From IMG/VR virus record IMGVR_UViG_3300037189_015081, positions 1 to 64,000 of that record: a DNA stretch of 64,000 nucleotides; one strand, 5' to 3'. The first letter of the stretch is position 1. Every line of letters starts with the position of its first letter. The notes beneath the pieces were generated by a model. It saw only the letters and a program-made list of their open reading frames with translations. It made no database searches and had not been told where the DNA came from. Shown here one piece after another: positions 5,872-22,284 of the stretch. Source of the stretch: a virus. The position numbers and the translations under genes are program-made.

Positions 5872-6820
5872 TAATCTATATCGAGCTAATCAGTCGATTG
5901 GTAATAAGATCAACGCGATTGATAATGATCTTAGTAGCGAGAGAAAGAGCACCTCGGCTCCGCACCTGTTTCCGGGGGATATTCAGGCCGAGCATCTTGC
6001 TACCGATTCTGTTACTACCGACGCACTCGCGACGGACTCTGTGACGTCCGTTCAACTGGCGCGTGGTTCCGTTGGAACCGAGAGTCTTGGTATTGTCAAC
6101 AAGTTGACGTCTGACGGCAACCTGGTCTTGAGTGCTGGTGGAACCGGCCATCTCATGCTGGATGGTACGCAGTACACCTCGCCGTACGACTCGATCAACC
6201 CAAACCAGCTTTATACGCTGGGAGTGCAGGCGTCATCAAACAAGGTAATGATATACCCGTACCCACCGAACAGCGGTTACGTACCAGTCATTCCAACTAG
6301 CGCGGCGGTGGTCAGTGGCGGATCCGCGACCACGAGCACCAATGGCGTTGTGAGCTTCACTGGAACGACCGGGATCCGTCTCAACGGCGTGTTCAGCGCG
6401 GCATACTCCGAGTACGTGGTCAAGTTCTACGCGACCTCGTCGGCCGGCTCCTACTGCTACTGGAAGTTTTCGAGCGGCGGAACAGACAACTCCACCAGCG
6501 CGTACGCGTACACGCTGCTCGCGTTCGGTCCAAGCGACGGCGGACTCACCAAGCAGGGCGGCGCATTCAGCCTGACCTCGGTCGCTCTGGTATACGCGTC
6601 CAGCGGTACTCAGGGTGGAGCTACCACGGTAAATGTGCATCGCCCGTATCAGACGTCCACCGTAAAGACATTGGACTACATAAATGCTTATGGTATCGGA
6701 ACCACTCAGTGGGGTGCGGGCGGACTGGACGTTGCTGGAACTGCATTTGACGGGTTCTCTATTATCGCCTCGAGCGGAACCATCACGGGCTCCGTGCAGG
6801 TTCTTGGAGTTAGGAGCTAG
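5864..6820 (+). CDS. Tail fibre / receptor-binding protein
   Basis: LATDSVT repeats followed by a beta-rich head (LNGVFS..Y..Y ... FDGF...G...V.G) paralogous to 44411..45346. Confidence 0.6.
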   Translation: MASNLYRANQSIGNKINAIDNDLSSERKSTSAPHLFPGDIQAEHLATDSVTTDALATDSVTSVQLARGSVGTESLGIVNKLTSDGNLVLSAGGTGHLMLDGTQYTSPYDSINPNQLYTLGVQASSNKVMIYPYPPNSGYVPVIPTSAAVVSGGSATTSTNGVVSFTGTTGIRLNGVFSAAYSEYVVKFYATSSAGSYCYWKFSSGGTDNSTSAYAYTLLAFGPSDGGLTKQGGAFSLTSVALVYASSGTQGGATTVNVHRPYQTSTVKTLDYINAYGIGTTQWGAGGLDVAGTAFDGFSIIASSGTITGSVQVLGVRS

Positions 6821-6822
6821 AC

Positions 6823-7047
6823 GTGCAAGATATCACCCCGGAAGACTCGGTCACACCGATATATCTCGTGCAGCTTACCGAGGAAGAAGCGACGGAGCTC
6901 GAGCAGCTTGCCGCTCAGGAACAGGCGCGAGTTGTCGCGATCGAGACTCAGCGGGCGGATCGACAGTCAGCTCTTGAAAAACTTGGTGCACTTGGATTGA
7001 CCGAGGACGAGGTTCGCGCGCTTATTTCTGCTAATGACAACCAGTAG
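6823..7047 (+). CDS. Small fibre-associated protein (chaperone-like)
   Basis: Follows the fibre gene and is a clear paralog of 45349..45567 (ITP.DSV.P.YL...TEEE...SAL.KL..LGLTEDE). Confidence 0.55.
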   Translation: MQDITPEDSVTPIYLVQLTEEEATELEQLAAQEQARVVAIETQRADRQSALEKLGALGLTEDEVRALISANDNQ

Positions 7048-7122
7048 ATCAGTGGCTTAGTCGCAGTAAAAACAGCACGTACCGTGTATTATTGAATCAG
7101 CTAATAGTTACGGCACAACGAA

Positions 7123-7905: not shown

Positions 7906-8919
7906 ATGTTTATCACAATTGAAGGCACAGACGCCTCAGGTAAAACCTCTCTTATCGAGGCCGTAGCAACCGAGCTACGCACGCGCTACCCTGAACAGGA
8001 AATAACGCAGTTTCACAAAAGCAAACCAGAAGAACTAACACGCCGCTGGGTTCTAAACGACTACGTGAACTCGATCGAGGCGATCGACTGGTCTACGCGT
8101 GTAGCGCTCTCAGACCGCTGGCATTGGGGTGAAATAACATACGCGCCGAAATATCGACCGGCAACAAACAAGGACGGCTACGGTCTACTCGGCAAGGCTG
8201 GATGGCGCTGGGTCGAGCTCTTCATGCAGTCCCGCGGTATCGCGCAGTACTGGCTTTATCAGCCCCTAGATGTCATCGAGGCGCGCCTAGCGGCACGCGG
8301 AGACGAGTTCGTAAAGGTCGAAGACCTGCGCGAAATACTTGCCCAGTACGAGATCGCCAATCAGGTGTCAGTGATCCGTAGCAAGATTCAACCGCCAGCC
8401 GACAGCCTTGACAAAATCCCGTCCATCGCCAAACTTATCGTCGATGACGCGGAACAGGTTGCCGCGTGCGTCAAGCCGCTCTCTGCTTTTCCTTACTACA
8501 TCGGTGCGCACAAGCCGAAGGTTCTTCTCGTCGGTGACCGGCACAACGCGACCAAACGCTACGGCAAGGAAACCGATCTGCCGTTCATGCCAGTTGACGG
8601 TAATTCCGCAGAGTACCTGTTGAACTCCCTGCCCGGTGATCTCTGGAAAAACGTCGGTATCGTCAACATCAATGACGGGACAAACGCGGAATCCTTTGAG
8701 ACTCTCTGGAACGTTCTAGGAAAACCACCAGTCGTTGTGCTCGGGAGACTGGCCGAGAAAACGCTAACGCAGATGCTGTTTAGCCAAGATAACTACGTCG
8801 TGCTGCCTCACCCGCAATTTGTACGCCGATTTGCAAACAACCACCAATCAGAGTACGGCGATGCAATCGCACGACTCGCAACAACAATGGACAAGGAAGA
8901 CAAATGGATCCTGCGGTAA
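7906..8919 (+). CDS. dNMP (thymidylate-kinase-like) kinase fused to a uracil-DNA-glycosylase-fold domain
   Basis: N-terminal ITIEGTDASGKTS P-loop and DRW motif. C-terminal KVLLVGD..PF..VN..VVVLGRLA..LPHPQ follows the UDG superfamily motif order. Confidence 0.75.
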   Translation: MFITIEGTDASGKTSLIEAVATELRTRYPEQEITQFHKSKPEELTRRWVLNDYVNSIEAIDWSTRVALSDRWHWGEITYAPKYRPATNKDGYGLLGKAGWRWVELFMQSRGIAQYWLYQPLDVIEARLAARGDEFVKVEDLREILAQYEIANQVSVIRSKIQPPADSLDKIPSIAKLIVDDAEQVAACVKPLSAFPYYIGAHKPKVLLVGDRHNATKRYGKETDLPFMPVDGNSAEYLLNSLPGDLWKNVGIVNINDGTNAESFETLWNVLGKPPVVVLGRLAEKTLTQMLFSQDNYVVLPHPQFVRRFANNHQSEYGDAIARLATTMDKEDKWILR

Positions 8920-9761
8920 TCAACATTCAAGACGGCGTCAACGGCTACGTTGACCTGGTCCAGCACGTGCTCGAACACGGCAAGGAGGTCGCGCCTCGCG
9001 GAATGAAAACGCGTGAGATCGAGGACGCGATTATCCGCATCGACGACGTGTACAACGCGCTGCCGCTTAACATTAATCGCGGAACGGTTCCAGGTATCGG
9101 TGCCGTCGAGGCAATGCAGCTTCTTGCCGGCGTCAGTGACCCTGAACTTGTCATCGCGGTAGGTCCACAGTTTAAGAACTACGCCGAGGACAATGGACAG
9201 TTCCACGGTGCGTACGGTTTGCGAACCGCTGGACAATACGAGGTTGTTGTCGATCGACTCAAGAACGACCCCGACACTCGACAGGCCGTTGTCACGATCT
9301 GGGATCCAAAGTTCGACACTCTCCCGGAGAAACGCGACTATCCGTGCACGGTACTGCACCAGTTCCGTATCCGCGACAACAGGCTCAACATGAGCATCTA
9401 CATGCGATCAAATGACGTATGGCTCGGTTCCGCGTATGACTTCTTCCAGTTTACCCGCGTACAGCTCGCAATCGCGTCCGTTCTCGGTATTGAACCTGGA
9501 ACGTACAACCACCACGTCGGGTCGCTGCACATCTATGAGCAGCACTATGACGTCGCTGATCGTCTCACCAAAACGGACGAGTACACGCGGGTACCATACA
9601 TCCAGGGATCAACCTGGAATGAGATTAAAACACAGGCGTTCCTGGCGCTTGAATCAGCCAAGAACCCAGAGCTACGCGGCGCTCTCACTGAGGACGCCGC
9701 GTGGTACGGTGACGCCATGCGAAACGCCGTGCTCAAGAACAAGGCCAAGGCGGAAAACTAA
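8904..9761 (+). CDS. Thymidylate-synthase-superfamily enzyme, dCMP hydroxymethylase-like (cytosine-specific Asp)
   Basis: DYPCT catalytic Cys and SLHIY. MRSNDVWLGSAYD has Asp at the position of E. coli ThyA Asn177, as in T4 gp42. Confidence 0.8.
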   Translation: MDPAVINIQDGVNGYVDLVQHVLEHGKEVAPRGMKTREIEDAIIRIDDVYNALPLNINRGTVPGIGAVEAMQLLAGVSDPELVIAVGPQFKNYAEDNGQFHGAYGLRTAGQYEVVVDRLKNDPDTRQAVVTIWDPKFDTLPEKRDYPCTVLHQFRIRDNRLNMSIYMRSNDVWLGSAYDFFQFTRVQLAIASVLGIEPGTYNHHVGSLHIYEQHYDVADRLTKTDEYTRVPYIQGSTWNEIKTQAFLALESAKNPELRGALTEDAAWYGDAMRNAVLKNKAKAEN

Positions 9762-9763
9762 AA

Positions 9764-10243
9764 ATGGCAATCGAGCGTCCTTCATGGGACACGGTGTGGA
9801 TGGACGTCGCGGAAACCGTGGCGCTCCGTTCGCGCTGCTCCCGTGCGCAGGTCGGGGCGGTTATCGTTTCACGCGAACAGCGCATTAGCGCGACGGGTTA
9901 CAACGGTCCCGCGGCAAACTGGCCCGAGCCGGGTGACTGTATTGACTGGTGCCCGCGTGCTCAAGGTAAGACGGCACTTGACAACACATATGACGCGTGC
10001 CCTGCGATTCACGCTGAGGCAAACGCGCTTCTGTACGTCGACCGTTCGCATGTTGAAGGCGGGACGATCTATGTCACCGGTGCGTGCTGCATGCAGTGCG
10101 CAAAACTGATCTCTAATTCTGGTATCGCAAAGGTTGTCATGAAGGTGCGCGACATTGATCTGCACCGTAAGCCAGAAATGGTCGTAGACTACCTTGTTAA
10201 GTGCGGGATCGATGTAACTTCTATCGGAGGAAACCCGCAATGA
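9764..10243 (+). CDS. dCMP deaminase
   Basis: RSRCSRAQVGAVIV, TGYNG, HAEANA and CxxC zinc motifs. Confidence 0.9.
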   Translation: MAIERPSWDTVWMDVAETVALRSRCSRAQVGAVIVSREQRISATGYNGPAANWPEPGDCIDWCPRAQGKTALDNTYDACPAIHAEANALLYVDRSHVEGGTIYVTGACCMQCAKLISNSGIAKVVMKVRDIDLHRKPEMVVDYLVKCGIDVTSIGGNPQ

Positions 10244-12063
10244 CAACAGGACCAATGACAGATGTCGAGCTAACGCTCGTCGACTCGACAGAGAAGGCGC
10301 AAGAGTTTCTGGCGTGGCTCAGCGAGCGTCGTCCATACAACGCGCTGGGAATCGACATCGAAACCGGTGAGAAGCCTGGTAACAATAAGAAGGACGCTTT
10401 CTCGCCATGGCATGGCGACATTCGTCTCGTCCAGGTTGGTGACTCTATGCACGGCTGGGCCATTCCCTGGGAGGAATGGGCTGGCGTGTTCTACGAGGCA
10501 ATGGAGAAGTTTGACGGCCCGATCGTCTGTCACAATATCGCCTTTGAAGCTCGCTGGTTTGACGTAAAGTCTCGCTGGAAGATGCCGTGGGAGCGCGCAC
10601 ATGACACGATGATCATGGCGCACATCATCGACCCGCTTGGTTCCGGTGCACTCAAGCAACTCGCCGCCCTACACGTCGACGGTCGCGCGGTCGCGCTGCA
10701 AAGCACGCTTGACCAGGAGTTCGCAAAGAACGGCTGGACGTGGGGAACGGTTCCTATTACCTATCAGCCATACTGGGCGTATGGCGCGCTCGACACGGTT
10801 TTAACCATGCGCCTGTGGGAACAGTTCTGGGAAAAGTGCGGACCAAACGGGCCGTATAGCCGACCATACGAATTGGAAATGGCTACGCGCAAGATCGTTA
10901 CGCGCATGGAGCTCAATGGTGCGCGTATCGACCTGGACTACTCGCGTAAGAAGTTTGATCAACTCACCGAGTACGCGGAGTCCGTAAAAGTCTGGGCTGC
11001 ACAAAACTACAATGGTGCGTCGATCACGAGTAACATTCAGCTTGTGCGGCTGTTCCAGGACCTTGGCGCAGAGATCACGTCCTTTACCCCGAGCGGTCAA
11101 CCATCAGCCGACAAGGACCAGCTTAAGTATCTTGCCGCTGAAGGTAATGACGCGGTGCGCCAACTTGCCGAGGTCGTGTTGAAGCAGCGCAAGGCAGACA
11201 AGCTAGCCAACACATACTTCAAGAACTTCCTTGAGGACAACATCGGCGGGTTTGTTCACCCGTCCGTCAAGACGCTTGGCGCACGTACGTCGCGTATGTC
11301 TATTACCGCGCCCGCGCTACAGACACTGCCTAAGGGTGACGACGTTGTGCGCCGTGCGTTCCTGCCTAAGGACGAGGATCACGTCATTATCACGTCCGAC
11401 CTCGACCAGGTCGAGTTCCGCATGTTTGCGTCACTGTCTAATGACCCTAACCTGATCAGTCTGTTCCACAAGGCGGACGCGACTGGTTCTGATCCGTTCA
11501 CGGAGATCGGTCGCGAGATCTATCAAGACCCGACGATGCAGAAATCGGACAAGCGTCGTAATCTCATCAAGGGAACAGTTTATGGTCGCCTGTACGGTGC
11601 TGGAGTTTCCAAGCAGGCAATCACTGCTGGCGTGGCAAAGAGCCAGATGCAGGCGGTTTCCGACGCGTTTGACACACGCTACCCGGGAATGGCCATGTTC
11701 CAGAAGCAGATTGAAGATACTGGGATGCGTCGTTTGCGCTCTGAAGGACAGGGCTACGTGAACACGTGGACTGGTCGTCGACTCCCATGTGACGAGGATC
11801 GCGTATACACGCTGGTGAACTATCTCATTCAGGGTGGTGCTGCCGAGGTTTTCAAGTCTAATCTTGTGAAGCTTGACCAGGCTGATCTGACTGAGCTGCT
11901 TATCGTTCCAGTGCACGACGAAATCGTGCTAAACGCTCCGCGTAAGGACGCACAGGAGATTATGAACATAGTGCAGCAGTGCATGACAACAAGCGAGGGT
12001 TGGCAGGTACCACTTACTTCTGGTATCGACGGTCCTCTTGAAACGTGGGGAGACAAGTACTAA
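10240..12063 (+). CDS. polA: DNA polymerase family A with 3'-5' exonuclease
   Basis: Exo DIET, HN..FE, Y...D; motif A DLDQVEFR, motif B K...YG.LYG, motif C VHDE. ATGA overlap with the upstream gene. Confidence 0.95.
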   Translation: MTTGPMTDVELTLVDSTEKAQEFLAWLSERRPYNALGIDIETGEKPGNNKKDAFSPWHGDIRLVQVGDSMHGWAIPWEEWAGVFYEAMEKFDGPIVCHNIAFEARWFDVKSRWKMPWERAHDTMIMAHIIDPLGSGALKQLAALHVDGRAVALQSTLDQEFAKNGWTWGTVPITYQPYWAYGALDTVLTMRLWEQFWEKCGPNGPYSRPYELEMATRKIVTRMELNGARIDLDYSRKKFDQLTEYAESVKVWAAQNYNGASITSNIQLVRLFQDLGAEITSFTPSGQPSADKDQLKYLAAEGNDAVRQLAEVVLKQRKADKLANTYFKNFLEDNIGGFVHPSVKTLGARTSRMSITAPALQTLPKGDDVVRRAFLPKDEDHVIITSDLDQVEFRMFASLSNDPNLISLFHKADATGSDPFTEIGREIYQDPTMQKSDKRRNLIKGTVYGRLYGAGVSKQAITAGVAKSQMQAVSDAFDTRYPGMAMFQKQIEDTGMRRLRSEGQGYVNTWTGRRLPCDEDRVYTLVNYLIQGGAAEVFKSNLVKLDQADLTELLIVPVHDEIVLNAPRKDAQEIMNIVQQCMTTSEGWQVPLTSGIDGPLETWGDKY

Positions 12064-12518
12064 TGCGCGCAATCCTAGCAGTGGATCCAGGTAAGGCAAC
12101 TGGAATGGCGTTGTTCACCAAGCAGCCAAATGAGGAACCTGTTCTCGTATGGTCGATCGAGGTGCAACAGCACGAGTACGCTCAGCCGATTAGGCAGACG
12201 CTTGCGCAGTACCCAGACGCCGAGGTCGTGTGCGAACGGTTTACCATCAACGCGCAGACCGTCAAGAACTCACAGGCACCGTTCTCTCTTGAGCAGATCG
12301 GTATCCTTAAGCAGTGTCTCCTCGATGTCGGGCGTTCAGCTGATGACGTGTATTTCCAGTCACCGGCTGACGCCAAGGCGATGTTTCCTAACCCGGCGTT
12401 GAAAAAACTTGACTACTGGCATAAGGGCGGAGAAGGACACGCCATGGACGCAATCAGGCATGGCATGTTGCGTTTTGTAAAAACGGGATGGAAGCCTGTC
12501 CGCCTGCTTCAAGAATAA
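12063..12518 (+). CDS. RuvC-like Holliday junction resolvase / RNase H-fold nuclease
   Basis: ILAVDPGKATG, VVCE and HAMDA motifs; TAATG overlap. Confidence 0.75.
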   Translation: MRAILAVDPGKATGMALFTKQPNEEPVLVWSIEVQQHEYAQPIRQTLAQYPDAEVVCERFTINAQTVKNSQAPFSLEQIGILKQCLLDVGRSADDVYFQSPADAKAMFPNPALKKLDYWHKGGEGHAMDAIRHGMLRFVKTGWKPVRLLQE

Positions 12519-12595
12519 AAACAGGTACTAAGCAGAAAAAGTGATTTATTCTGCAAAAAACCTGATAGTATTAGAAACATAAAGACGAAAGGACG

Positions 12596-14407
12596 GTGTT
12601 CATGCACGCAAACGTAGAACTCGACGACACGGGTAAGAGCATCATTATTGACACCGACTGGCGGTTCAAGGAGCTCTGCAAGAGTCTCCCCGGTGCCAAG
12701 TGGGATCCTAAAACGCAGCAATGGCGTGTACCCACGTCGTGGGCGACATGCCTCGCCTTGCGCTCAACGTTCCGCGAAGATCTCACCATTGGACCTGGAC
12801 TTGCCGCTTGGGCGGCCAATGAGCGCGCAACGCGTGTCGACCCGGCCAATGCGTTTCGTGGTCTTGAGACGGCCGAGGACGCCTCTAATGAGGACCTGTT
12901 CCCGCACCAACGCGCCGGGGTCCAGTTTCTGCACACCGCGCGACGTGCCCTGCTCGCTGATGAGCCCGGTCTCGGTAAAACCGCGCAGGCAATCCGTTCA
13001 TTGAAGAAGTTCGCCGACAATGATGAGACGCCGTTCCCCGCGCTTATTGTTTGTCCAAACACGCTTAAGAAAAACTGGGCACGTGAGTTCGGTCGCTGGT
13101 GGCCAGAAGCAAAGGTAACCGTTATCAAGGGTTCAGCTGCTCAACGACGCCTTCAATTCGAGGATGGCGCCGATGTCTATGTGATCAACTGGGAATCGCT
13201 GCGTTCGCACTCGCGCTTGGCGCCGTACGGCTCAGTTGCTCTTGCTCGCTGCGTATCCTGCGGCGGTCATGACGAGAAGATCACGGAAAACCGTTGCGAG
13301 GTTCACCTGCGCGAACTAAACAGTATTCAATTCAAGGCCGTCGTTGCCGATGAGATTCACCGTTCAAAGGATCCAAAAAGCAAGCAGTCACGCGCGCTGT
13401 GGGCTGCAACCGGTGACGCGGATATTCGCTTTGCCTTAACTGGTACACCAATCGCAAATAACGTCATCGACCTGTGGGCAATCATGCACTGGTTGTCACC
13501 GGAAGAGTGGCCAAGTAAGACGCGCTGGATTGACCGCACGGTCGACACGATGATGAACGCTTTTGGTGGAATGCTTGTCCTGGGTATCAAGCCAGCCATG
13601 CAATCCGAGTTTGACGCGACAATCAACCCGCGTATGCGGCGCATGCTCAAAAAGGTCGTGCTGCCCTGGCTACCAGACATGATGTTCGAGCGTCGCGACG
13701 TTGAGATGTCGACAAAGCAGGCAAAGGCGTATAAGCAGATGCGCGATCTAATGATTGCCGAGCTCGACGGAAGCGACGCGCTAACCGCGCCTAGCGCGCT
13801 GACGCAGACAACGCGTCTACTGCAATTTGCGAGCGCGTACGCTGAGATCACGCTCGACGAGTCAACGGGTGAGCAACAGGTAAAGCTTACGGCGCCATCG
13901 TGCAAGGTTGACGCGCTCATGGACGACATAAAGAACGGCGACTTTGGTGACGACTCAGTCGCCGTGTGCGCAGTTTCACGTCAGCTCATCGAGATCCTGA
14001 GCGCCGAGCTGACAAAGGCTAAGATTCCGCACGGGTTGATCACCGGTGCGCAAACGGAGGACGAGCGCCAACAGGCCGTTGACGACTTCCAGTCCGGTAA
14101 GACAAAGTGGGTATTGTTCACCGCGCAGGCTGGTGGTGTTGGTATCACACTGACTGCGGCACGACGACTCGTCATGCTGCAGCGCCCGTGGTCACTTGTT
14201 GACCACAAACAGGCACTTGATCGCGTGCACCGTATCGGCTCAGAAATCCACGAGTCCATCATCGTGACAGACTATGTTACCGAGGGAACAATCGAGGAGC
14301 GCGTCATCCAGGTTCTAGAAACCAAGGCTGACAACTTTGAGCAGATCGTACGCGACCGCGATCAGTTGCTTGCACTACTAAAAGACGACAAGGCAGGTAA
14401 GCTCTAA
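12596..14407 (+). CDS. SNF2-family helicase
   Basis: LADEPGLGKT, DEIH, LTGTP..N, GVGITL, QALDRVHRIG. Confidence 0.92.
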   Translation: MFMHANVELDDTGKSIIIDTDWRFKELCKSLPGAKWDPKTQQWRVPTSWATCLALRSTFREDLTIGPGLAAWAANERATRVDPANAFRGLETAEDASNEDLFPHQRAGVQFLHTARRALLADEPGLGKTAQAIRSLKKFADNDETPFPALIVCPNTLKKNWAREFGRWWPEAKVTVIKGSAAQRRLQFEDGADVYVINWESLRSHSRLAPYGSVALARCVSCGGHDEKITENRCEVHLRELNSIQFKAVVADEIHRSKDPKSKQSRALWAATGDADIRFALTGTPIANNVIDLWAIMHWLSPEEWPSKTRWIDRTVDTMMNAFGGMLVLGIKPAMQSEFDATINPRMRRMLKKVVLPWLPDMMFERRDVEMSTKQAKAYKQMRDLMIAELDGSDALTAPSALTQTTRLLQFASAYAEITLDESTGEQQVKLTAPSCKVDALMDDIKNGDFGDDSVAVCAVSRQLIEILSAELTKAKIPHGLITGAQTEDERQQAVDDFQSGKTKWVLFTAQAGGVGITLTAARRLVMLQRPWSLVDHKQALDRVHRIGSEIHESIIVTDYVTEGTIEERVIQVLETKADNFEQIVRDRDQLLALLKDDKAGKL

Positions 14408-15348
14408 TGGCAACCGAATACCCTATCCGCGTATCAAACTCGGAGCTACAAACATTCAAGGACTGTCGTCGACGCTGGTGGTTGAACTACTACCGTCGTT
14501 TGCGACCACTGCAGGAAAATAAGACCGGTGCACTTGCGCTCGGCTCGCGCGTGCACAATGCGCTTGACATGTACTATTCGCAGGGCGTACCTCTTCTTGA
14601 AGCGCACAAACACTTCCTTGACATTGACCGTGCTAATCTTGAGGCGGCGTTCCAGGACACGTCCGATCTCGACACCGAGGGAGAACTCGGGCGTATCATG
14701 CTTGAAGGATACCTTGAATGGGTCGAGGAAAACGGTATTGACGCTGAACTAGAGATGATCTCCACCGAGGAGATTATCGAGATGCCGCTACTCGACGGCA
14801 AGGTTATCCTTCAAGGCAAGATCGACATGCGCGTTCGCCGGAAGGCAGACGGCGTTCGAATGTTCCGCGACTTCAAGACCGTTGGTGGTTCATTCACGGA
14901 CTTTACCGCCCTGGCCCACATGAACGAGCAGATCCTTACCTATATGATGCTCGAGGCTGCACAGAACAAGGACGGCGAGCGCTCAGAGGGTGGTATCTTT
15001 ACCATGCTCAAGAAGGTGAAGAGATCCGCTAATGCCCGTCCGCCTTTCTATGAGCAGATGGAAGTTCGTCATAACATTTTCGCGCTACGCAACTTTTGGC
15101 AGCGTATTCACGGTACAATTACTGACCTGGTAAACGTCCGTGACGCGCTTGATGAAGGAGCTAATCACCAGTTTGTAGTCTATCCGCGTCCGTCGCGTGA
15201 CTGCAAATGGAAATGTCCATTCTTTGCTGTTTGTCCTTTGCTCGACGACGGTTCCGCCGGTGAGCAGGCGATCAGCGAGTCGTATCGGGTCGCCGATCCG
15301 TACGGGTACTACAACAACAACACCGAAGAGAAGGGAAGTGAGATTTAA
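14407..15348 (+). CDS. Cas4/RecB-like PD-(D/E)XK exonuclease
   Basis: N-terminal Cys, GS.VH, GKID, DFKT and C-terminal CxxCxxxxxC. Confidence 0.85.
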   Translation: MATEYPIRVSNSELQTFKDCRRRWWLNYYRRLRPLQENKTGALALGSRVHNALDMYYSQGVPLLEAHKHFLDIDRANLEAAFQDTSDLDTEGELGRIMLEGYLEWVEENGIDAELEMISTEEIIEMPLLDGKVILQGKIDMRVRRKADGVRMFRDFKTVGGSFTDFTALAHMNEQILTYMMLEAAQNKDGERSEGGIFTMLKKVKRSANARPPFYEQMEVRHNIFALRNFWQRIHGTITDLVNVRDALDEGANHQFVVYPRPSRDCKWKCPFFAVCPLLDDGSAGEQAISESYRVADPYGYYNNNTEEKGSEI

Positions 15349-15350
15349 CT

Positions 15351-16100
15351 ATGGCAAACCAAGTTCAACGATCACTCACCATCATGGTGTACGGAGAGTC
15401 GAAGGTCGGTAAGTCGACATTCGCAGTAACCGCACCATATCCCCGTCTCATGCTCGACGTGGAAGGCGGTCACCGCTTCCTTCCAATCAACGTCAAGTAC
15501 TGGGATCCACTTCGTGAGGAGCCGCCGCAGGCGGATGGCACATGGGACACAGTTGTCGTCAACGTTCGTGATTACGAAGTTGTCGTCAAGGCGTTCCAGT
15601 GGCTTCAGAGCGGTAAGCACCAGTTCAAGTCCTTGATCATTGACTCCATCTCGGAGCTCCAGGTTAAGTGCATGGACAGCATCGCCGGTAGCGAGCAAAT
15701 GAAGATGCAGCAGTGGGGCGAACTTCTTCGCCACATGGGTGCGCTTCTTCGCGATCTTCGCGATCTCACGATGCACCCGACACAGCCGTTGGAGGCGGTT
15801 GTCCTTACCGCAATGGCTCGACCTGGACAGGACGGTCGCATGCGTCCGTACCTTCAGGGACAGCTCGCGATTCAGGCACCGTACTTCTACGACATTCTTG
15901 GCGCCATCAACGTCGAGACCGTACCAAACCAGGACCCGATGCAGCCGCCTCACAAGGTGCGCCGCATGTATGTCGAACGCACTGATGACTATGAAGCAGG
16001 CGAGCGCGTGCAGGGACGTCTTGGTAAAATCGTTGAGCAGCAGGACCTCGGGGTTGAACGCATGCTCGACATGATCTTTGGTCCCAAGGCCGAAGGTTAG
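15351..16100 (+). CDS. AAA ATPase (Sak4/AAA_24-like recombination protein)
   Basis: YGESKVGKST, LDVEGG, IIDSISE; lies between the exonuclease and SSB genes. Confidence 0.8.
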   Translation: MANQVQRSLTIMVYGESKVGKSTFAVTAPYPRLMLDVEGGHRFLPINVKYWDPLREEPPQADGTWDTVVVNVRDYEVVVKAFQWLQSGKHQFKSLIIDSISELQVKCMDSIAGSEQMKMQQWGELLRHMGALLRDLRDLTMHPTQPLEAVVLTAMARPGQDGRMRPYLQGQLAIQAPYFYDILGAINVETVPNQDPMQPPHKVRRMYVERTDDYEAGERVQGRLGKIVEQQDLGVERMLDMIFGPKAEG

Positions 16101-16155
16101 CAACACAACATCCCGACCAAGGTGGTCGGAGCGATGAAAAATAAGGAGAAATACC

Positions 16156-16722
16156 ATGAGCTCACTCAACTGGGGTGACCTTGTAAAGGACGCAGGAGAC
16201 GTAGGAAGCTACGAACCTCTGCCCGATGGTGACTACGACCTCGTAGTTGTCGAGGCAACCGCCAAGACTGCACAGTCTGGCAAGACCATGTTCGCTATCA
16301 AGGCGCAGGTGCAGAACGGACCACACGCGAAGCGTCTGGTTTGGGACAACCTCGTTGTAACACCCGACAGCCCTGGTGCTCTCGGAATGTTCTTCCGCAA
16401 GATGGCCGGTCTCGGTCTGAACCGCGAGTTCTTCTCGCAGAACCCGTCAAACGCACAGATCGAGGCTGCTCTCCAGCAGCGTCCATTCCGTGCCCAGATC
16501 GGTTCGCGCGTCTGGAACGGCTCGAAGAAGAACGAGATCAAGATGTACTACGTCGCTAACGCGGCTACCGCATCTGCGGCGCCTGTCGCTGCTGCTCCGG
16601 CACCGGCGCCTGCGCCAGCTCCGGCACCAGCTCCAGCAGCGCCGATCGCTGAGGCTCCTGCTGCAGCGGCGCCTGCGCCAGCTCCGGCACCAGCTCCAGC
16701 TGCGCCTGCTGAACCGTTCTAA
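16156..16722 (+). CDS. ssDNA-binding protein (DUF669-like) with Pro/Ala tail
   Basis: YEPLPDGDY motif, OB-like core, (AP)n linker ending in PF. Confidence 0.75.
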   Translation: MSSLNWGDLVKDAGDVGSYEPLPDGDYDLVVVEATAKTAQSGKTMFAIKAQVQNGPHAKRLVWDNLVVTPDSPGALGMFFRKMAGLGLNREFFSQNPSNAQIEAALQQRPFRAQIGSRVWNGSKKNEIKMYYVANAATASAAPVAAAPAPAPAPAPAPAPAAPIAEAPAAAAPAPAPAPAPAAPAEPF

Positions 16723-16738
16723 TCTAGAGCGCTCAATC

Positions 16739-16776
16739 GGGTCGCCGTCCGTAGCCATCGCTGCGGGCGGCGATCC
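16739..16776 (+). terminator. 17-bp hairpin after ssb (terminator/attenuator, no U tract)
   Basis: GGGTCGCCGTCCGTAGC-CATC-GCTGCGGGCGGCGATCC with G-U pairs. Confidence 0.55.
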
Positions 16777-16796
16777 AGCACCTGAATAGGAAACAC

Positions 16797-18008
16797 ATGA
16801 AAATCCTTATGACCGGATTCACGGCTCTTCAAATCAACAGCGAGAAGCGCGTGATCCAGAAAATTGACGTCCCAGCGTTTATCGCCAAGGCCCTTACAGA
16901 ACTAGGGCACGACGTGGACTGGCGTCGCGTGGAAACTGGCGAGGATCTCTCTGGTTACGATCTTGCCTGGGTAAACCTTGCACCACTGCACTCATTGAAC
17001 GGTCGCCAAGGCGCGATGGGTTCACTCTATACTTTGTCGTCAGGTATTCCGTGCGTCGGATTCTTTGACGACTGGCAGTTCAGCGCCGTGTTCAATGGCG
17101 CAAAGGCTCTTGTCCGTAAACCAAGTATTCTCTACAAGCACCTGCTCGTAGGAACCGAACATCGCGGCGAAGAAGGCGCGACGTACTTTAGTCGCAAGGA
17201 CATCGAGGAAGCTGTTGCGCGCATCGCGGAAAAGGATCCTGTAGCCGCGAAGAAGTGCACCATTGAGCGTTACTACATGCTCGACACTGACGAGAAGATC
17301 GAACCGTACGAGAAGCAACTCGTGCAGGCCGCTGAAGACTTCCTGAGTGACCGTTGGGCAGCAGGCATGGTTCCAGTTTGCCCGATGTACTCGTTCGGTG
17401 ATCGCGCTGGCGTGCGCAAACGCATGCCGAAAGGTGTTGGCCCGATCGAGGCGCTTGATCCGTCCGCTGTCGTCAACGACACGCTTAACGCGGTAACGCC
17501 TGCCAAGCCTGAAGAAAAGGCACGAGGATGGGTACTAGGTGCGCTCATGCCGCATGATACCTGGCTTGAAAAGAAGAATCCGGCATGGCCAGTTGAAATT
17601 GTCGGTAGTCGCAAGCTTATTCGCAAGATGGGCGGTCAGCGCTTCGGCACCGAGCAAGAGGTTCTTGAGTTCTACAATAAGTACTGGGGAATCATGTCCC
17701 CGCCGTACATGCATGCGGGTTCAGGCTGGTGGCGCTCGCGTTTTATCTATGCCGCGCATATCGGGTCTGTTCTCATCACTGACAAGGGTGAAGGCGATCC
17801 ACTAGGTGACCCGTACAGGCTCACCATCAGCGACGTAGAGGCAATGGACCAGGCGCAACTGGCTGCCGCTGCGCAAGCACAACGCGATGCACTGATGCCA
17901 CTTCTTGGAACATACGATCAGTTCAAGGCACATGTTGAACGAATCGTCGACCGTGCCATCGCCGAGGACAAGGGTCTTAAACTGAACGCGGACGGTTCAC
18001 GCGCATGA
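16797..18008 (+). CDS. GT-B glycosyltransferase, T4 beta-glucosyltransferase-like (putative DNA base GT)
   Basis: MKILMTG...KALTELGHDVD...DLSGYDLAWVN...GFFDDW parallels the T4 BGT N-domain; C-terminal GWWRSR. Confidence 0.6.
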   Translation: MKILMTGFTALQINSEKRVIQKIDVPAFIAKALTELGHDVDWRRVETGEDLSGYDLAWVNLAPLHSLNGRQGAMGSLYTLSSGIPCVGFFDDWQFSAVFNGAKALVRKPSILYKHLLVGTEHRGEEGATYFSRKDIEEAVARIAEKDPVAAKKCTIERYYMLDTDEKIEPYEKQLVQAAEDFLSDRWAAGMVPVCPMYSFGDRAGVRKRMPKGVGPIEALDPSAVVNDTLNAVTPAKPEEKARGWVLGALMPHDTWLEKKNPAWPVEIVGSRKLIRKMGGQRFGTEQEVLEFYNKYWGIMSPPYMHAGSGWWRSRFIYAAHIGSVLITDKGEGDPLGDPYRLTISDVEAMDQAQLAAAAQAQRDALMPLLGTYDQFKAHVERIVDRAIAEDKGLKLNADGSRA

Positions 18009-19036
18009 GTAACGTACTTATTACCGGCATGACCGCGTCCCACACATCCGAGGCAACCAATCAGCGCGCACTATCATTCGCTGGCGTAGTTGCCAAGGCG
18101 CTAGCGAGTACTGGTCACACGGTGACAATAAGCGCGCCCGACATGCGGTGGACGCTTGATGAACTAGCCCGCTACGACTCTGTCATCGTCGGGATCGCGC
18201 CTCTCACGAGTGTCACCGCGAGTAACGCGTATGGCGGGTTGCACGTCATTGACCTGCTATGGACGGATCCACGGCTAACGCTTATGGTTGACGCGCCACG
18301 CCCAGTGCAGATTGGCGCCAGCCTGCGCTCGATTATCGGAACACCGGATAACCTTGTAAAACCGTTTTACTCTAAGCGACGCGGATACAGTGTCGCGGCG
18401 GAGAAGGAGACATCCGCGCGTCTTCTTGAAACAACGCGCAGACTGCTAGAGGAGGAGTGGCCAGCAACTATCTACCCGTCGCTGCCGTGGCACGACGCGG
18501 AAGCTATGCGGGCTCAGTTCCCAGACGGAACCAAGACTCTCTACGGCGTAAATCTTGACGCCTTTCTTGTCTCCGGTGAACCTCCTCGATGGGATAAGAC
18601 AACCGCCAGTTGCTGGGTTGCTGACGATCCTAAAGCCGCGTGGATCCAGAAGATCGTTCCAACAATCGGAGACGAGGTTGCCCCGATGAAGAACGACTCG
18701 TGGCAAAGTGACGATGACGTAGACAAGCGGATTGGCGAGTCACGTGGATCACTTATCACATCCCACCGGGAAGGAACCTGGTGGACGTACCGTATCATCC
18801 AGTCACTAAACAATGGCACGCCGGTTGCGACTGATTGGCGTGAGGCAAGTATCATTGGTTCTTCGTGGGGAATTCTTCCATCCGCAATAGAATCATTGTA
18901 TGGCCGCGACATCGAGAACCTTGCATGGAATCAATTAGATGAGTACATGCAGCACATCCCGTCACGTGACGAGGCTGGCAAGGCGCTAAAAACAATCATC
19001 GGAAGCGACAGTTCAAAACGAAAGGCAAGTAAATGA
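18005..19036 (+). CDS. Second BGT-like glycosyltransferase paralog
   Basis: NVLITGMTA...AKAL...GH.V...L..YD..V.IAPL.S aligns with the upstream gene; TWWTYR...GTPV.TD. Confidence 0.55.
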   Translation: MSNVLITGMTASHTSEATNQRALSFAGVVAKALASTGHTVTISAPDMRWTLDELARYDSVIVGIAPLTSVTASNAYGGLHVIDLLWTDPRLTLMVDAPRPVQIGASLRSIIGTPDNLVKPFYSKRRGYSVAAEKETSARLLETTRRLLEEEWPATIYPSLPWHDAEAMRAQFPDGTKTLYGVNLDAFLVSGEPPRWDKTTASCWVADDPKAAWIQKIVPTIGDEVAPMKNDSWQSDDDVDKRIGESRGSLITSHREGTWWTYRIIQSLNNGTPVATDWREASIIGSSWGILPSAIESLYGRDIENLAWNQLDEYMQHIPSRDEAGKALKTIIGSDSSKRKASK

Positions 19037-19518
19037 CACTATTTGGATCCTGGCTTGGCGACACCCGCAAGCTCCAGGAAGAAGGATTCAAGATCGACTA
19101 CGCGGCGATGACAGGTGATGAACCTGAAAAGATCAACGCGCTGATCGAGTATATTCGCTGGAACATGCTGGCAATCGACGATGAAATGGCTGAGATGCGT
19201 CAACCTATTTCGTGGAAGCCGTGGCAACACGACATGCCGTACGCTGACCGCGAGGAAGTTATCAAGGAGGCCGTTGACGTTCTGCATTTCGTGGCAAACA
19301 TCATTGTCGCCTGCGGCGGAACGGACGAGCAACTCAATGAGTTCTACTCGGCAAAGATGGAGAAAAACCGCCAGCGCCAGCTCAAAGGGTACGAGGTAAA
19401 GGCCGCCGGAGTAAAGTGCACGATCTGTACGCGAGCCATTGATGACGTGGGGGCTGGACGCACCGAGGGCGTCTGCGCCAAGTGCGAGCCGGTCAGCGAG
19501 GAGAACGGCAATGCCTAA
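19033..19518 (+). CDS. All-alpha dCTPase/dUTPase (T4 gp56-like) with C-terminal Zn finger
   Basis: AIDDE..E..WKPW..E..D..HF..N..Y..K...N..RQ..GY pattern, then CxxC...CxxC. Confidence 0.8.
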   Translation: MTLFGSWLGDTRKLQEEGFKIDYAAMTGDEPEKINALIEYIRWNMLAIDDEMAEMRQPISWKPWQHDMPYADREEVIKEAVDVLHFVANIIVACGGTDEQLNEFYSAKMEKNRQRQLKGYEVKAAGVKCTICTRAIDDVGAGRTEGVCAKCEPVSEENGNA

Positions 19519-19930
19519 TGTAAATGAAGAATGGGTGACAAACCAGTTTGCCGCTGCCCGTGTTCGCGTTGGTTCTGGTAAGGCGGTACTCAAGCTGCTT
19601 GAGGTATGGAACAAGATCTCGCTGAGCGATCAACTGGCCAAGGAGGCAGTGGAGATATTCTCAAAGGTGGCGCTAAACCACGCGCTTATTCCTGAAGCGC
19701 CTGATGAGAAATGGGCACCGGCACAGCCTGGATTTATCCAGGTTGGAGACCAGGTTCGTGTCATGGCTGACGCCTTTGACGGGGAGCTTGGCGCTCTGCA
19801 CAATGGAAGACGCGGAGTAGTTGTCGCTGTTCGCCATGGCGACGTGATTATGAACTCAAATGACGATGTTGAACCTAAGCTTGAGAGCGCGCACTACTCG
19901 CCGTACAAACTTGACAAGAGGTACCAGTAA
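19511..19930 (+). CDS. Hypothetical protein (SH3-like C-terminus)
   Basis: ATG after GAGGAG; VGDQVRV...GRRGVVVAV. Confidence 0.6.
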   Translation: MPNVNEEWVTNQFAAARVRVGSGKAVLKLLEVWNKISLSDQLAKEAVEIFSKVALNHALIPEAPDEKWAPAQPGFIQVGDQVRVMADAFDGELGALHNGRRGVVVAVRHGDVIMNSNDDVEPKLESAHYSPYKLDKRYQ

Positions 19931-20130
19931 TGAGAACAGCACTAAAGTTTAGTATTCTTGGTAAGACACTCGCGGACATCAAAACACAGGCGGCTTACCG
20001 CGTTGCAGAGTTTCTAGAACTTGACGACATTTCTGGACTTGATGACGCCGCAGAAGTCGAGATAGCTGTTGTGCAGACCGAGGACACGTATCCGTTGTTT
20101 GGAGCAACCGTAAGCGTTAGGATTAGGTAA
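19930..20130 (+). CDS. Hypothetical protein
   Basis: TAATG-coupled ORF. Confidence 0.6.
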   Translation: MRTALKFSILGKTLADIKTQAAYRVAEFLELDDISGLDDAAEVEIAVVQTEDTYPLFGATVSVRIR

Positions 20131-20498
20131 TGGCAGACTACGATTATCAACAACCAGGAAACGTTCCACCTCAGGTTGACGCGGAGCCGCAACTTCCTCC
20201 TCCAGGAAGCGCCCCGCTTAGGGTTGAAGCTCTCCGCGATGCGGCGCGGATTATCAATGGAAGCCGCGATGCACAGTACGGCAGTCCAATAGATAACTTT
20301 GATCGTATCGCTCGAATATGGTCGGTTATTCTAGGGATCGACGTGACCCCTGAAGACGTTGCCATGTGTATGGCGGGATTGAAGATGGCGCGCTATGCGT
20401 CAAAGTCCGGGTTTCAACCTGACACCTGGATCGACCTCGCCGGCTACGCTGGATGCGGATTTGAGGTAGGAAAACTCGCCTCAGAGAAAAACAGCTAG
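20130..20498 (+). CDS. DUF6378-like phage protein
   Basis: A..IING.R...YG.P..NF.RIA..WS...K.AR...D.W.D.AGY. Confidence 0.75.
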   Translation: MADYDYQQPGNVPPQVDAEPQLPPPGSAPLRVEALRDAARIINGSRDAQYGSPIDNFDRIARIWSVILGIDVTPEDVAMCMAGLKMARYASKSGFQPDTWIDLAGYAGCGFEVGKLASEKNS

Positions 20499-20761
20499 TG
20501 TCGGACGAGCGTTTTAGGGTGTACCCGCAGTGTGAGGTATGCTGGATAGAGGAGAACTCTACCTGGGAACCTGACGGGGTAAGCTCTGACGGAAAACTTG
20601 TCGCAAGAATGTCTGCCATTGCGGTTCCTGTTGATCTTGAGCCTGGTCAAGTAAACGTATGTTGCGTGTGCGGTGAACTGACCGTCGTAGGGATTTTTGT
20701 AGAGCGAGAAAAGGCTGACGTGGTATACGACATTGACCCTAGGGACATAATTCAACAGTAA
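20498..20761 (+). CDS. Hypothetical Zn-binding protein
   Basis: CEVC and CCVCG. Confidence 0.55.
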   Translation: MSDERFRVYPQCEVCWIEENSTWEPDGVSSDGKLVARMSAIAVPVDLEPGQVNVCCVCGELTVVGIFVEREKADVVYDIDPRDIIQQ

Positions 20762-20808
20762 CCTGATATATTAGTTCTACCAAATGACGCAAGACGTAAG
20801 GACACGGT

Positions 20809-21339
20809 ATGCAGACGTTCATTCCACAAGAAGCATCATTCGCAAAGATGGCCGAGCCACTCGACCGCCAACGGCTGAACAAGCAGGCGCTTGAAGGTTG
20901 GCAGATACTTCTTACTCTTCTCGAGCTCGATCCGCAAGGTAATCACCGCGATCCAAAAGGCTGGAAGACCCACCCGGCCGTGACCATGTGGCGTGGCCAT
21001 GAGACTGCGCTATACCAATACGTCCAGCAGATGGTTGTCGAATGGAAGGCGCGCGGCTACAACTCGACTATTGGCGACAAAGCGCAGGCAACCATTCTTC
21101 GCGCGCACCAACTTGGCAAGATCGACAGCACTGTTATTACTTACCCTTGGTGGATCCAGGACACCTCGGCATTTGCACGGATAGCATCGTCCCACCGGGT
21201 TGCGCTTCTGCGCAAGAACTATGAGTGGTATTCACAGTTCAACTGGCCGGAAGACGCGGGAACGCAACCAGACTACTACCAGTACCTGTGGCCAAGTGAA
21301 AACGGCGACCTCGTTCTTGGAACATTCAACAACGCATAA
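20809..21339 (+). CDS. MSMEG_6728-like pyrimidine-dimer DNA glycosylase family protein
   Basis: MQTF.P, LD..RL.KQ..E..Q, HPAV.MWRG.E, SHR..LLRK, Y.WP. Confidence 0.8.
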   Translation: MQTFIPQEASFAKMAEPLDRQRLNKQALEGWQILLTLLELDPQGNHRDPKGWKTHPAVTMWRGHETALYQYVQQMVVEWKARGYNSTIGDKAQATILRAHQLGKIDSTVITYPWWIQDTSAFARIASSHRVALLRKNYEWYSQFNWPEDAGTQPDYYQYLWPSENGDLVLGTFNNA

Positions 21340-21738: not shown

Positions 21739-22284
21739 TTGGTAAAGAAGCTCGATCTCAGTTGGCAGGTAGACTCCGCGTGCGCCAAGCCAGAGAACAA
21801 AGAACTCGTAGAGTACTTCTTCTCTACGCAGCCGGAAGAGAAGTATCAGGCTAAGAATCTGTGCTTTGAATGCCCCGTCCGCGAACAGTGTCTCAAGTGG
21901 GCGCTTGAAAATCGACAGATCTGGGGAATCTGGGGTGGACGCGATGAAGGAGAGATCCGCAGAGCGCTTAGCGTTTCCTGGAACGGAAAAGAATCGCGAC
22001 GTCAGCGCTATCCGCAATGTCCATTCTGCACCGCGCGCCCGAGTAAACTGACGACAGATGTCATCGAGCTTGAGGGTGGTGGACGGTGGTCAACCGCTAA
22101 AATTGTTTCATGTAGCGCGTGCGGGTTTACATGGCGCAGTCGCACAAGCGCGAATGCTGTCGAGGCGTACCACGTCGAGCGTGAAGAAAAGCTCGAGCGC
22201 GCAAAGAAGCTACGTGAAAAGAAGAAGGAACGCGAGATGAAGAAAAAATCTCGCGGAACGACCCCGCGTCCTAAGCCGGAATAA
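21739..22284 (+). CDS. whiB: WhiB-family Fe-S transcription factor with C-terminal zinc ribbon
   Basis: W....AC...FF...AK.LC..CPV...CL..AL......GIWGG, then CPFC...CSACG and a basic tail. Confidence 0.9.
   Translation: MVKKLDLSWQVDSACAKPENKELVEYFFSTQPEEKYQAKNLCFECPVREQCLKWALENRQIWGIWGGRDEGEIRRALSVSWNGKESRRQRYPQCPFCTARPSKLTTDVIELEGGGRWSTAKIVSCSACGFTWRSRTSANAVEAYHVEREEKLERAKKLREKKKEREMKKKSRGTTPRPKPE

Follow-up and report, generated by a model that had tools for sequence, protein, structure and literature searches.

Does a phage of actinobacteria replace the cytosine of its DNA with a sugar-bearing base, in the manner of T4? The question is raised by positions 7906-19518 of a 64,000-nucleotide stretch of viral DNA (positions 1 to 64,000 of IMG/VR record IMGVR_UViG_3300037189_015081; hereafter the window), where a homolog of thymidylate synthase (TS) stands together with genes of nucleotide metabolism and two putative glycosyltransferases, GT1 and GT2. 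The window is the start of a 116,681-bp viral genome, a single contig with direct terminal repeats, from a lake-derived, uncultured phage whose hosts are actinobacteria. Judging from its genes, we predict, with a probability of roughly 0.72, that this phage swaps cytosine for 5-hydroxymethylcytosine (5hmC) before replication and then coats its DNA with sugar, as T4 does. A first-pass annotation of the region had proposed T4-style cytosine replacement and glycosylation, and the proposal is supported by the active-site residues of the TS homolog, by its being the sole TS homolog in the genome, by a relative of T4 gp56, by transferase folds like that of T4 beta-glucosyltransferase (BGT), and by the linkage of such transferases to TS homologs in unrelated lineages.

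All of the genes on which that annotation drew (TS homolog, kinase, deaminase, pyrophosphatase, and two proteins of the GT-B fold) are present on the + strand, on which every long open reading frame (ORF) of 7906-19518 lies in close packing. The genes that bear on the question are as follows.

7906..8919, + strand: predicted deoxynucleoside monophosphate (dNMP) kinase with a C-terminal domain resembling the uracil-DNA glycosylase (UDG) superfamily; 337 aa; phrog_761, 2axp
8904..9761, + strand: TS homolog, predicted dCMP hydroxymethylase (5-hydroxymethyl-dCMP [5hm-dCMP] synthase); 285 aa; PF00303
9764..10243, + strand: dCMP deaminase; PF00383 E value of 5.8e-20, phrog_174 E value of 1.2e-42
10201..12063, + strand: family A DNA polymerase (PolA) with a 3'-5' exonuclease domain; PF00476 E value of 2.3e-53, PF01612 E value of 4.2e-5
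16797..18008, + strand: GT1, GT-B fold, predicted DNA 5hmC glycosyltransferase; 403 aa; no Pfam match
18005..19036, + strand: GT2, a diverged paralog of GT1, GT-B fold, predicted second DNA glycosyltransferase; 343 aa; no Pfam match
19033..19518, + strand: all-alpha NTP pyrophosphatase related to T4 gp56, with a C-terminal four-cysteine tail; PF08761 E value of 1.1e-10

The TS homolog matches PF00303 with an E value of 2.5e-28, and its closest solved relative by sequence is the CMP 5-hydroxymethylase MilA (E value of 1.4e-24). Its translation contains both YPCT and RSNDVWLGSAYD, as first reported, and the aspartate that had been read at the position of ThyA Asn177 is recovered when the protein is aligned with solved TS structures by HMMER and, by MAFFT, with E. 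coli ThyA, T4 gp42, RB69 gp48, and the homologs from phage DSL-LC01 and the Gordonia phages Forza, GodonK, and GMA2. In ThyA numbering, C146, E58, and Y94 are retained (all invariant alignment columns), as are R126 (within PDTR), R166, S167, and D169, the RSND stretch being identical to that of T4 gp42. Substitutions include L143D (RDYPC versus SDFMC in T4), H147T, and N177D (AYD aligned to PFN of ThyA), the last as in T4 gp42. D143, T147, the ND pair, and D177 are retained in all 80 relatives of the TS homolog from IMG/VR, and DSL-LC01, Forza, GodonK, and GMA2 display the same signature.

These positions have been assigned roles in characterized enzymes. The N177D substitution goes with a preference for dCMP (PMC13326640), and aspartate at this site (T4 Asp179) is described as the mark of cytosine specificity (PMC13326640 and PMC5175136). 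An acidic residue at position 143 (L143D/E) marks hydroxymethylases, accompanying hydroxymethyl and not methyl products (PMC13326640); the T4 counterpart, Asp145, three residues ahead of the catalytic cysteine, is essential, the D145N variant being inactive (PMC6400193). Ser167 and Arg126 are tied to deoxyribose rather than ribose substrates, based on the A176S/K133R changes in MilA (PMC5175136). By these signatures, the TS homolog should make 5hm-dCMP from dCMP, and not dTMP, 5-hydroxy-dCMP, 5-methyl-dCMP, or hydroxymethyl-CMP. The first-pass annotation held that neither the base nor the sugar could be read from sequence: this stands for the sugar, but for the base the published signatures (D169 retained, Asp143) narrow the choice, in favor of a hydroxymethyl group. 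The 52.7 kb outside the window were probed with PF00303, PF02511, PF00692, PF08761, and PF00145 and by tblastn with the genes of the transferase slot described below; across the 116.7-kb genome, the PF00303 probe found the TS homolog alone and the PF02511 probe found no ThyX, and thus the TS homolog is not a spare copy beside a normal TS.

The pyrophosphatase had been called gp56-like, and its PF08761 match, its IDDE, WKPW, and RQLKGY motifs, and a BLASTP alignment with T4 gp56 (E value of 2e-10, 27% identity over 115 aa) all agree with that assignment, T4 gp56 itself matching PF08761. It is the single PF08761 member of the genome, in which the PF00692 probe detected no trimeric dUTPase. Following the gp56-like domain, the last ~35 residues (19414-19491) form a CxxC...CxxC tail that extends beyond the end of T4 gp56 in the BLASTP alignment and draws weak zinc-ribbon Pfam matches (E value of 0.076). 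The dCMP deaminase is likewise clear from its PF00383 match; its gene follows the TS gene in 78 of the 80 close relatives (the exceptions, L048 and L055, stop within ~0.6 kb of TS) and in 35 of the 42 loci of a distant clade considered below.

The assignment of the kinase is the weakest of the set. Residues 1-150 match the phrog_761 profile, "thymidylate kinase" (E value of 8.3e-14), and SPbeta YorR (PDB 2axp; E value of 0.0019), and contain the P-loop GTDASGKT; all Pfam kinase families fall under the cutoff with the 7906-8919 protein, such that the proposed dNMP kinase finds backing in PHROG and YorR but not in Pfam. The kinase gene overlaps the TS gene by 16 nt and adjoins it in 78/80 of the IMG/VR relatives, the misses (L061 and L088) having TS at the locus edge. 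The remainder of the protein (8428-8919; residues ~175-337) is an extra UDG-superfamily-like domain, with a PF03167 match under the cutoff (E value of 0.02), an Atlas feature score of 0.88 to viral clusters partly annotated as UDG, and a structural template modeling (TM) score of 0.67 to an archaeal UDG cluster. Motifs usual in family-4 UDGs seem to be altered in this domain (GDRHN and HPQF).

GT1 and GT2 are paralogous (hhalign, 99.5%, E value of 2.9e-22, with 23% identity over 324 columns) and belong to a family without a Pfam model: none of their metagenome homologs (233 proteins for GT1 and 50 for GT2) contains a Pfam domain, and a profile search places 687 clusters, formed at 50% identity, in the family. 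AlphaFold models based on the homolog alignments reached a predicted local distance difference test (pLDDT) score of 88.0 and a predicted TM score (pTM) of 0.85 for GT1 and 94.1 and 0.91, respectively, for GT2. Both predicted structures are of the GT-B type, with two Rossmann domains, and T4 BGT is the best or tied-best solved match. For GT2, BGT ranks third in Foldseek (E value of 3.6e-6, with the top TM score in the list) and first by Z score (18.1; root mean square deviation of 3.7; 295 residues aligned), with SenB at 17.0 and T4 alpha-glucosyltransferase at 15.6. The models and structure comparisons, Foldseek among them, therefore bear out the earlier claim of two GT-B proteins. The "BGT-like N-termini" that had also been claimed do not hold up, as the GT2 family aligned to T4 BGT by hhalign gives 2.6% and neither protein has a Pfam match; the likeness is one of fold only. 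Searches of PDB sequences with the two family profiles returned nothing meaningful (best E values of 1 and 0.056).

Such a predicted fold marks GT1 and GT2 as likely nucleotide-sugar transferases, the acceptor not being given by the fold. Their conserved residues appear compatible with a working active site: DDWQ and GSGWWRSRF are invariant in GT1; invariant aspartates (D91/D92 in GT1 and D96 in GT2) directly follow strands 86-89 and 91-95, respectively, of the N-terminal domain; and a G-W-x-R-x-R motif, two glutamates, and one glutamine are conserved across the GT1/GT2 superfamily, the two glutamates and the Gly, Trp, and Arg residues of the motif being invariant. The deposited GT2 product is 243 aa long and matches 71% of the 343-aa ORF at 100% identity; this gene call is probably too short, and we place the start at 18005 because the homologs are 330-346 aa long and because this start creates an ATGA overlap.

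What, then, is the acceptor? GT1, GT2, and the pyrophosphatase gene are joined by ATGA start/stop overlaps within a replication operon, and GT1 and GT2 co-occur in all 70 relatives with enough sequence (10 of the 80 loci, with less than 1.1 kb after GT1, were left out). Anchoring on TS gives 35 informative loci (the other 45 of 80 having less than 2.6 kb after the gene for the single-stranded DNA-binding protein [SSB]): 28 have both transferases, 2 have GT2 alone, and 5 have neither. In these last five (L066, at 18127-20644, L081, and L085-L087), the transferase slot is occupied by a 412-aa putative glycosyltransferase, an APH-like phosphotransferase, and a HAD-like hydrolase, and in another locus (L070), GT2 is retained with a 435-aa relative of the 412-aa protein in the place of GT1. 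These 412- and 435-aa proteins resemble Forza gp127, an annotated glycosyltransferase (BLASTP E value of ~1e-6), and are unrelated to the GT1 family by hhalign. In a metagenomic cluster for DNA glycosylation, such a combination of APH and HAD genes has been linked to the activation of heptose (bioRxiv 10.1101/2023.12.21.572611). Because relatives hold another putative glycosyltransferase and APH-like and HAD-like genes at this site, the slot behaves like a swappable sugar cassette.

The linkage extends well beyond close relatives. The first GT1 alignment gave only close relatives (at least 71% identity), and a more diverse alignment was built for distant loci, which yielded a clade of 42 loci whose transferases are 24-36% identical to GT1 and whose median GC content is 29%, versus 47% in the close clade. 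In 40 of the 42, the transferase gene has a TS homolog 0.7-2.5 kb away, mostly with a dCMP deaminase gene after it. D143, T147, D169, and D177 are all present in 37/42; of the rest, one has Asn143, one is too divergent to score, and three have a TS region truncated where the locus stops. The gene order in this low-GC clade (L185-L222, L231, L237, and L242) is GT1-family gene, small gene, Asp-type TS, and dCMP deaminase.

A further case comes from Aeromonas phage 25, a relative of T4 with a T4-type gp42 (SDFMCT, RSND, and ND). A 2010 review lists this phage as having genes 42 and 56 and no glucosyltransferase homolog (PMC2993671), and our search for PF09198, the BGT family, found no match in it, the T4 control matching. 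Aeromonas phage 25 does encode a GT1-family protein (hhalign, 98.8%, E value of 7e-17). At 4896-7077 of locus L005 (from NC_008208), the UDP-galactopyranose mutase gene PHG25p228nc (PF03275 E value of 5e-54) is directly upstream of the GT1-family gene PHG25p227nc; the third gene of the tandem was considered as a GT2-family member and ruled out as unrelated. The PHG25p228nc/PHG25p227nc pair is a candidate for the missing DNA glycosylation genes of Aeromonas phage 25. Operon structure, close relatives, the distant clade, and Aeromonas phage 25 agree in pointing to DNA as the acceptor of GT1 and GT2.

What was observed are the identities of the genes, their linkage and conservation, the active-site residues, and the folds; the pathway that we build on them is a prediction in each of its chemical steps, as it is in the choice of DNA as the transferase target, in the sugar, and in how much of the cytosine is replaced. 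The gp56-like pyrophosphatase (19033-19518) would hydrolyze dCTP (and dUTP) to the monophosphate, depleting dCTP and feeding the hydroxymethylase. The TS homolog (8904-9761) would then make 5hm-dCMP from dCMP, drawing on methylene-tetrahydrofolate, with the aspartate at the ThyA-177 position selecting cytosine and the aspartate three residues ahead of the catalytic cysteine activating water, such that a hydroxymethyl and not a methyl group results. The kinase (7906-8919) may convert 5hm-dCMP to the diphosphate and host nucleoside diphosphate (NDP) kinase convert this to the triphosphate, which the phage PolA would insert during replication. The deaminase would divert part of the dCMP to dUMP for dTMP synthesis by the host, just as T4 cd supplies dUMP for dTMP synthesis. 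After DNA synthesis, GT1 and GT2 (16797-19036) would put sugar from a host-made nucleotide sugar onto the 5-hydroxymethyl groups, either adding two sugars in sequence or modifying the same acceptor in two ways. DNA modified in this way would resist restriction enzymes and, probably, the nucleases of CRISPR systems; replacing and sugar-coating cytosine is an established means by which viruses counter the nucleases of their hosts.

The identity of the sugar can be approached through relatives. DSL-LC01 has a UDP-galactopyranose mutase between the orthologs of GT1 and GT2; tblastn detected no such mutase in the present genome, for which the sugar donor is presumably host made. Because a mutase stands beside GT1-family genes twice, once in DSL-LC01 and once in Aeromonas phage 25, the comparison suggests that the GT1 family can use UDP-galactofuranose. 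Galactofuranose is accordingly a candidate sugar for the family rather than for the present phage in particular. It is also possible, though we hold it doubtful, that the tandem GT1 and GT2 build a 5hmC glycan undescribed on DNA, for example one that contains a furanose or two sugars; UDP-galactofuranose would then come from the actinobacterial host, and the family would represent a large, unannotated, and diversifying toolbox of DNA glycosyltransferases.

Several observations weigh against cytosine replacement by a glycosylated 5hmC. In the TS homolog, R127 is changed to Gln, and the equivalent of T4 Ser94 is Gly (HGAYG versus NSNYG in T4), so that one residue of the published hydroxymethylation signature, T4 Asp145 plus Ser94-x-Tyr96 (PMC6400193), is missing. 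Because of this glycine, placement among the T4 gp42-type dCMP hydroxymethylases is probable rather than certain; we treat the substitution as a caveat because the T4 S94A variant keeps ~25% of its activity, S94N keeping none (PMC6400193). The kinase call draws on a PHROG profile and a single weak PDB match. The pyrophosphatase might be a plain dUTPase, given that the genome encodes no other dUTPase by the PF00692 probe and that dCTPases and dUTPases are not separable by sequence. GT1 and GT2 fall outside PF09198 and have no sequence relation to BGT; the GT-B fold is common, with SenB, PimA, and others within 1 Z unit of BGT, and by itself is no proof of a DNA substrate; and their conserved aspartates are no more than candidate counterparts of Asp100 of BGT. 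Finally, tblastn with the mutase and the other slot genes as probes, in a genome without a full annotation, found no nucleotide-sugar gene. Among public sequencing runs, one DNA run, possibly of the source sample, contains this genome and is stored as contigs, a form in which base modification does not show; two more runs of that study contain next to none of its sequence, and no RNA run is listed for it.

These points give some room to the view that the DNA contains bare 5hmC, or another C5-modified cytosine, and that GT1 and GT2 act on a cell-wall polymer, a virion protein, or a small molecule. Cell-wall and small-molecule GT-B enzymes nearly equal BGT in Z score, and the DSL-LC01 authors interpret the mutase next to their transferases as a cell-wall auxiliary gene (PMC10611076). 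We nevertheless regard such an acceptor as unlikely, since the transferase genes lie inside a replication operon and are translationally coupled to a dNTP pyrophosphatase, since, in an unrelated low-GC lineage, 37 of 42 distant transferase genes are found 0.7-2.5 kb from an Asp-type TS, and since a T4 relative of the hmC type, itself without a PF09198 match, encodes a GT1-family member.

If the acceptor is DNA, the modified base could still be glycosylated 5-hydroxycytosine (5hoC), as in RB69, DLP3, and RL38JI, with the TS homolog serving as a flavin-dependent 5-hydroxy-dCMP synthase and the sugar attached by a direct ether bond. Such synthases are also TS homologs with N177D, L143E, and PCT (RB69 gp48); a phage-encoded UDP-galactopyranose mutase goes with the pathway in the Pootjesviridae (PMC13326640), and a mutase also lies beside the GT1-family genes of DSL-LC01 and Aeromonas phage 25. 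The residue at ThyA position 169 speaks against this alternative. The D169N substitution is described as diagnostic of flavin-dependent 5-hydroxy-dCMP synthases, every assayed one of which has Asn169 and gives 5hoC (PMC13326640, 2026). RB69 accordingly reads RSQN at this site, whereas the TS homolog and 80/80 of its relatives have Asp169, within RSND as in T4 gp42, and the gp42 of Aeromonas phage 25 is likewise RSND; we consider a 5hoC product improbable.

A third scheme accepts the hydroxymethylase and changes the fate of its product: the adjacent deaminase would convert 5hm-dCMP to 5hm-dUMP, and a glycosylated base derived from 5-hydroxymethyluracil (5hmU) would replace thymine. The deaminase gene neighbors the TS gene in the close clade and in the distant one alike, a linkage tighter than that of gene 42 and cd, which lie apart on the T4 map. 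The T4 scheme, however, fully accounts for a dCTP/dUTP pyrophosphatase together with a deaminase that feeds dTMP synthesis, and the phage, without a TS of its own, needs dUMP for the host enzyme. No 5hmU-specific enzyme was noticed, in a genome that was not searched as a whole for such enzymes, and we find replacement of thymine very hard to credit. The last alternative, that the TS homolog is a dCMP methyltransferase of the Xp12 type or an unusual dTMP synthase and that the DNA contains 5-methylcytosine or is unmodified, is favored by the "thymidylate synthase" annotation of all named relatives and by the absence of Ser94, but it has very little to recommend it when, under the published rule, Asp177 is incompatible with a preference for dUMP (PMC13326640 and PMC5175136), when Asp143 replaces the bulky hydrophobic residue said to keep water out in methyl-forming enzymes (PMC13326640), and when a methyl group offers no acceptor to the linked transferases.

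The remaining features of the region are as follows.

12045-16722, + strand: replication and recombination genes (RuvC-like, SNF2 helicase, PD-(D/E)XK nuclease, recombinase-like AAA_24 ATPase, and DUF669/SSB)
20130-20498: DUF6378 protein
20809-21339: Pyr_excise (pyrimidine-dimer) glycosylase
21739-22284: WhiB

The genes at 12045-16722, although they lie between PolA and GT1, do not belong to the modification set; among them, the RuvC-like label of the small protein after PolA is taken from the annotation of a relative. No solved relative was found for the DUF6378 protein. Upstream of the module, a 1,522-aa ORF (1303-5871) has no Pfam match above the cutoff, and DSL-LC01 has tape-measure and minor-tail genes at the corresponding place.

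A ~1.2-kb gene of the C5-cytosine-methylase family separates the DUF6378 gene from the pyrimidine-dimer-glycosylase gene in 35 of 36 close relatives (the other 44 of the 80 loci lack one flanking gene and were excluded from the count), and PF00145 proteins are present in DSL-LC01 and Forza as well. At this site the window has 311 nt (20498-20808) with an 87-aa ORF, and the genome contains neither a PF00145 match at an E value of ≤0.1 nor a tblastn match. The nearest relative among the loci scored for the methylase, L106, is also without the gene. Because it is absent from both genomes, the C5-methylase-like enzyme is dispensable for the module.

The first-pass description of the virus as a PolA actinophage agrees with its PolA match, its WhiB gene, and its nearest relatives, all three pointing the same way. 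Of the named phages, the metagenome-assembled Actinomycetia phage DSL-LC01 and large Gordonia phages are the nearest; with the entire region as query, megablast against named phages returned one short match only, of 72.8%, to Microbacterium phage Cece.

If the prediction is correct, full cytosine replacement with a sugar coat, as in the T-even phages, reaches large siphovirus-type phages of actinobacteria that have a PolA replisome. Some members of the group are cultured Gordonia phages from teaching collections, which makes the prediction directly testable. In many freshwater viral contigs it would change the labels "thymidylate synthase," "thymidylate kinase," and "hypothetical protein," and it supplies a candidate function for a GT-B family without a Pfam model and a candidate for the transferase of Aeromonas phage 25, listed as absent in 2010 (PMC2993671). 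Such transferases would be of interest as tools for labeling 5hmC and may account for the poor cutting or sequencing of phage DNA.

Published accounts approach these genes from other directions. In the open-access literature, we found nothing that links actinophages or Gordonia phages to hydroxymethylcytosine. The main text of the DSL-LC01 paper mentions neither thymidylate synthase nor hydroxymethyl and treats the mutase as a cell-wall auxiliary gene (PMC10611076), and the GMA2 paper, where it discusses glycosyltransferases as possible DNA protection, draws no tie to the TS homolog (PMC4524720). Metagenomic phage GT-B enzymes associated with ThyS/5mYOX have T4 BGT as a structural neighbor (Foldseek E values of 1e-5 to 1e-7) and often lie beside TS homologs (bioRxiv 10.1101/2023.12.21.572611); contig 53 of that study has APH-like and HAD-like genes, as does the transferase slot of the variant relatives. 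The terms "Actinobacter," "Gordonia," and "Aeromonas" are absent from its main text, although its supplementary tables may list the GT1/GT2 family.

Among known systems, DSL-LC01 (OQ999401) has the same module in the same order: kinase, TS (64% identical), deaminase, and PolA and, later, the GT1 and GT2 orthologs and the pyrophosphatase. The Gordonia phages Forza, GodonK, Phendrix, and GMA2 resemble the present phage in having GT1/GT2 relatives and a PF08761 pyrophosphatase. DSL-LC01 differs in its mutase between the transferases and its C5-methylase-family gene, and Forza differs in its third annotated glycosyltransferase (gp127) and, again, its C5-methylase-family gene; the present genome is without any of these.

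The TS homologs of RB69, DLP3, and RL38JI, like that of the present phage, combine N177D with an acidic residue at position 143; they are likewise accompanied by a dNMP kinase and DNA glycosyltransferases, which in the present phage are predicted, and in some members an NDP-sugar mutase is phage encoded (PMC13326640). They differ in D169N, which is absent here, and therefore the predicted acceptor in the present phage is a hydroxymethyl group and not a ring hydroxyl.

The T4 pathway (gp56, gp42, gp1, cd, and the alpha- and beta-glucosyltransferases) offers the same set of enzyme roles as those predicted here. Shared with T4 are the gp42 residues (D143, the threonine after the cysteine, RSND, and D177), the homology of the pyrophosphatase to gp56, and a GT-B fold for which BGT is the best or tied-best match. 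GT1 and GT2 depart from T4 in having no sequence likeness to BGT or to Pfam glycosyltransferase families and in being tandem paralogs of one unannotated family; the polymerase is of family A, in contrast to family B in T4; the kinase has an extra UDG-like domain; the hosts are actinobacteria; and Ser94 is replaced by Gly. Replacement of cytosine by 5hmC before replication, followed by glycosylation of the DNA, is thus a known type of system, predicted here to operate with an unannotated GT-B family, a fusion of a kinase to a UDG-like domain, and a PolA replisome.

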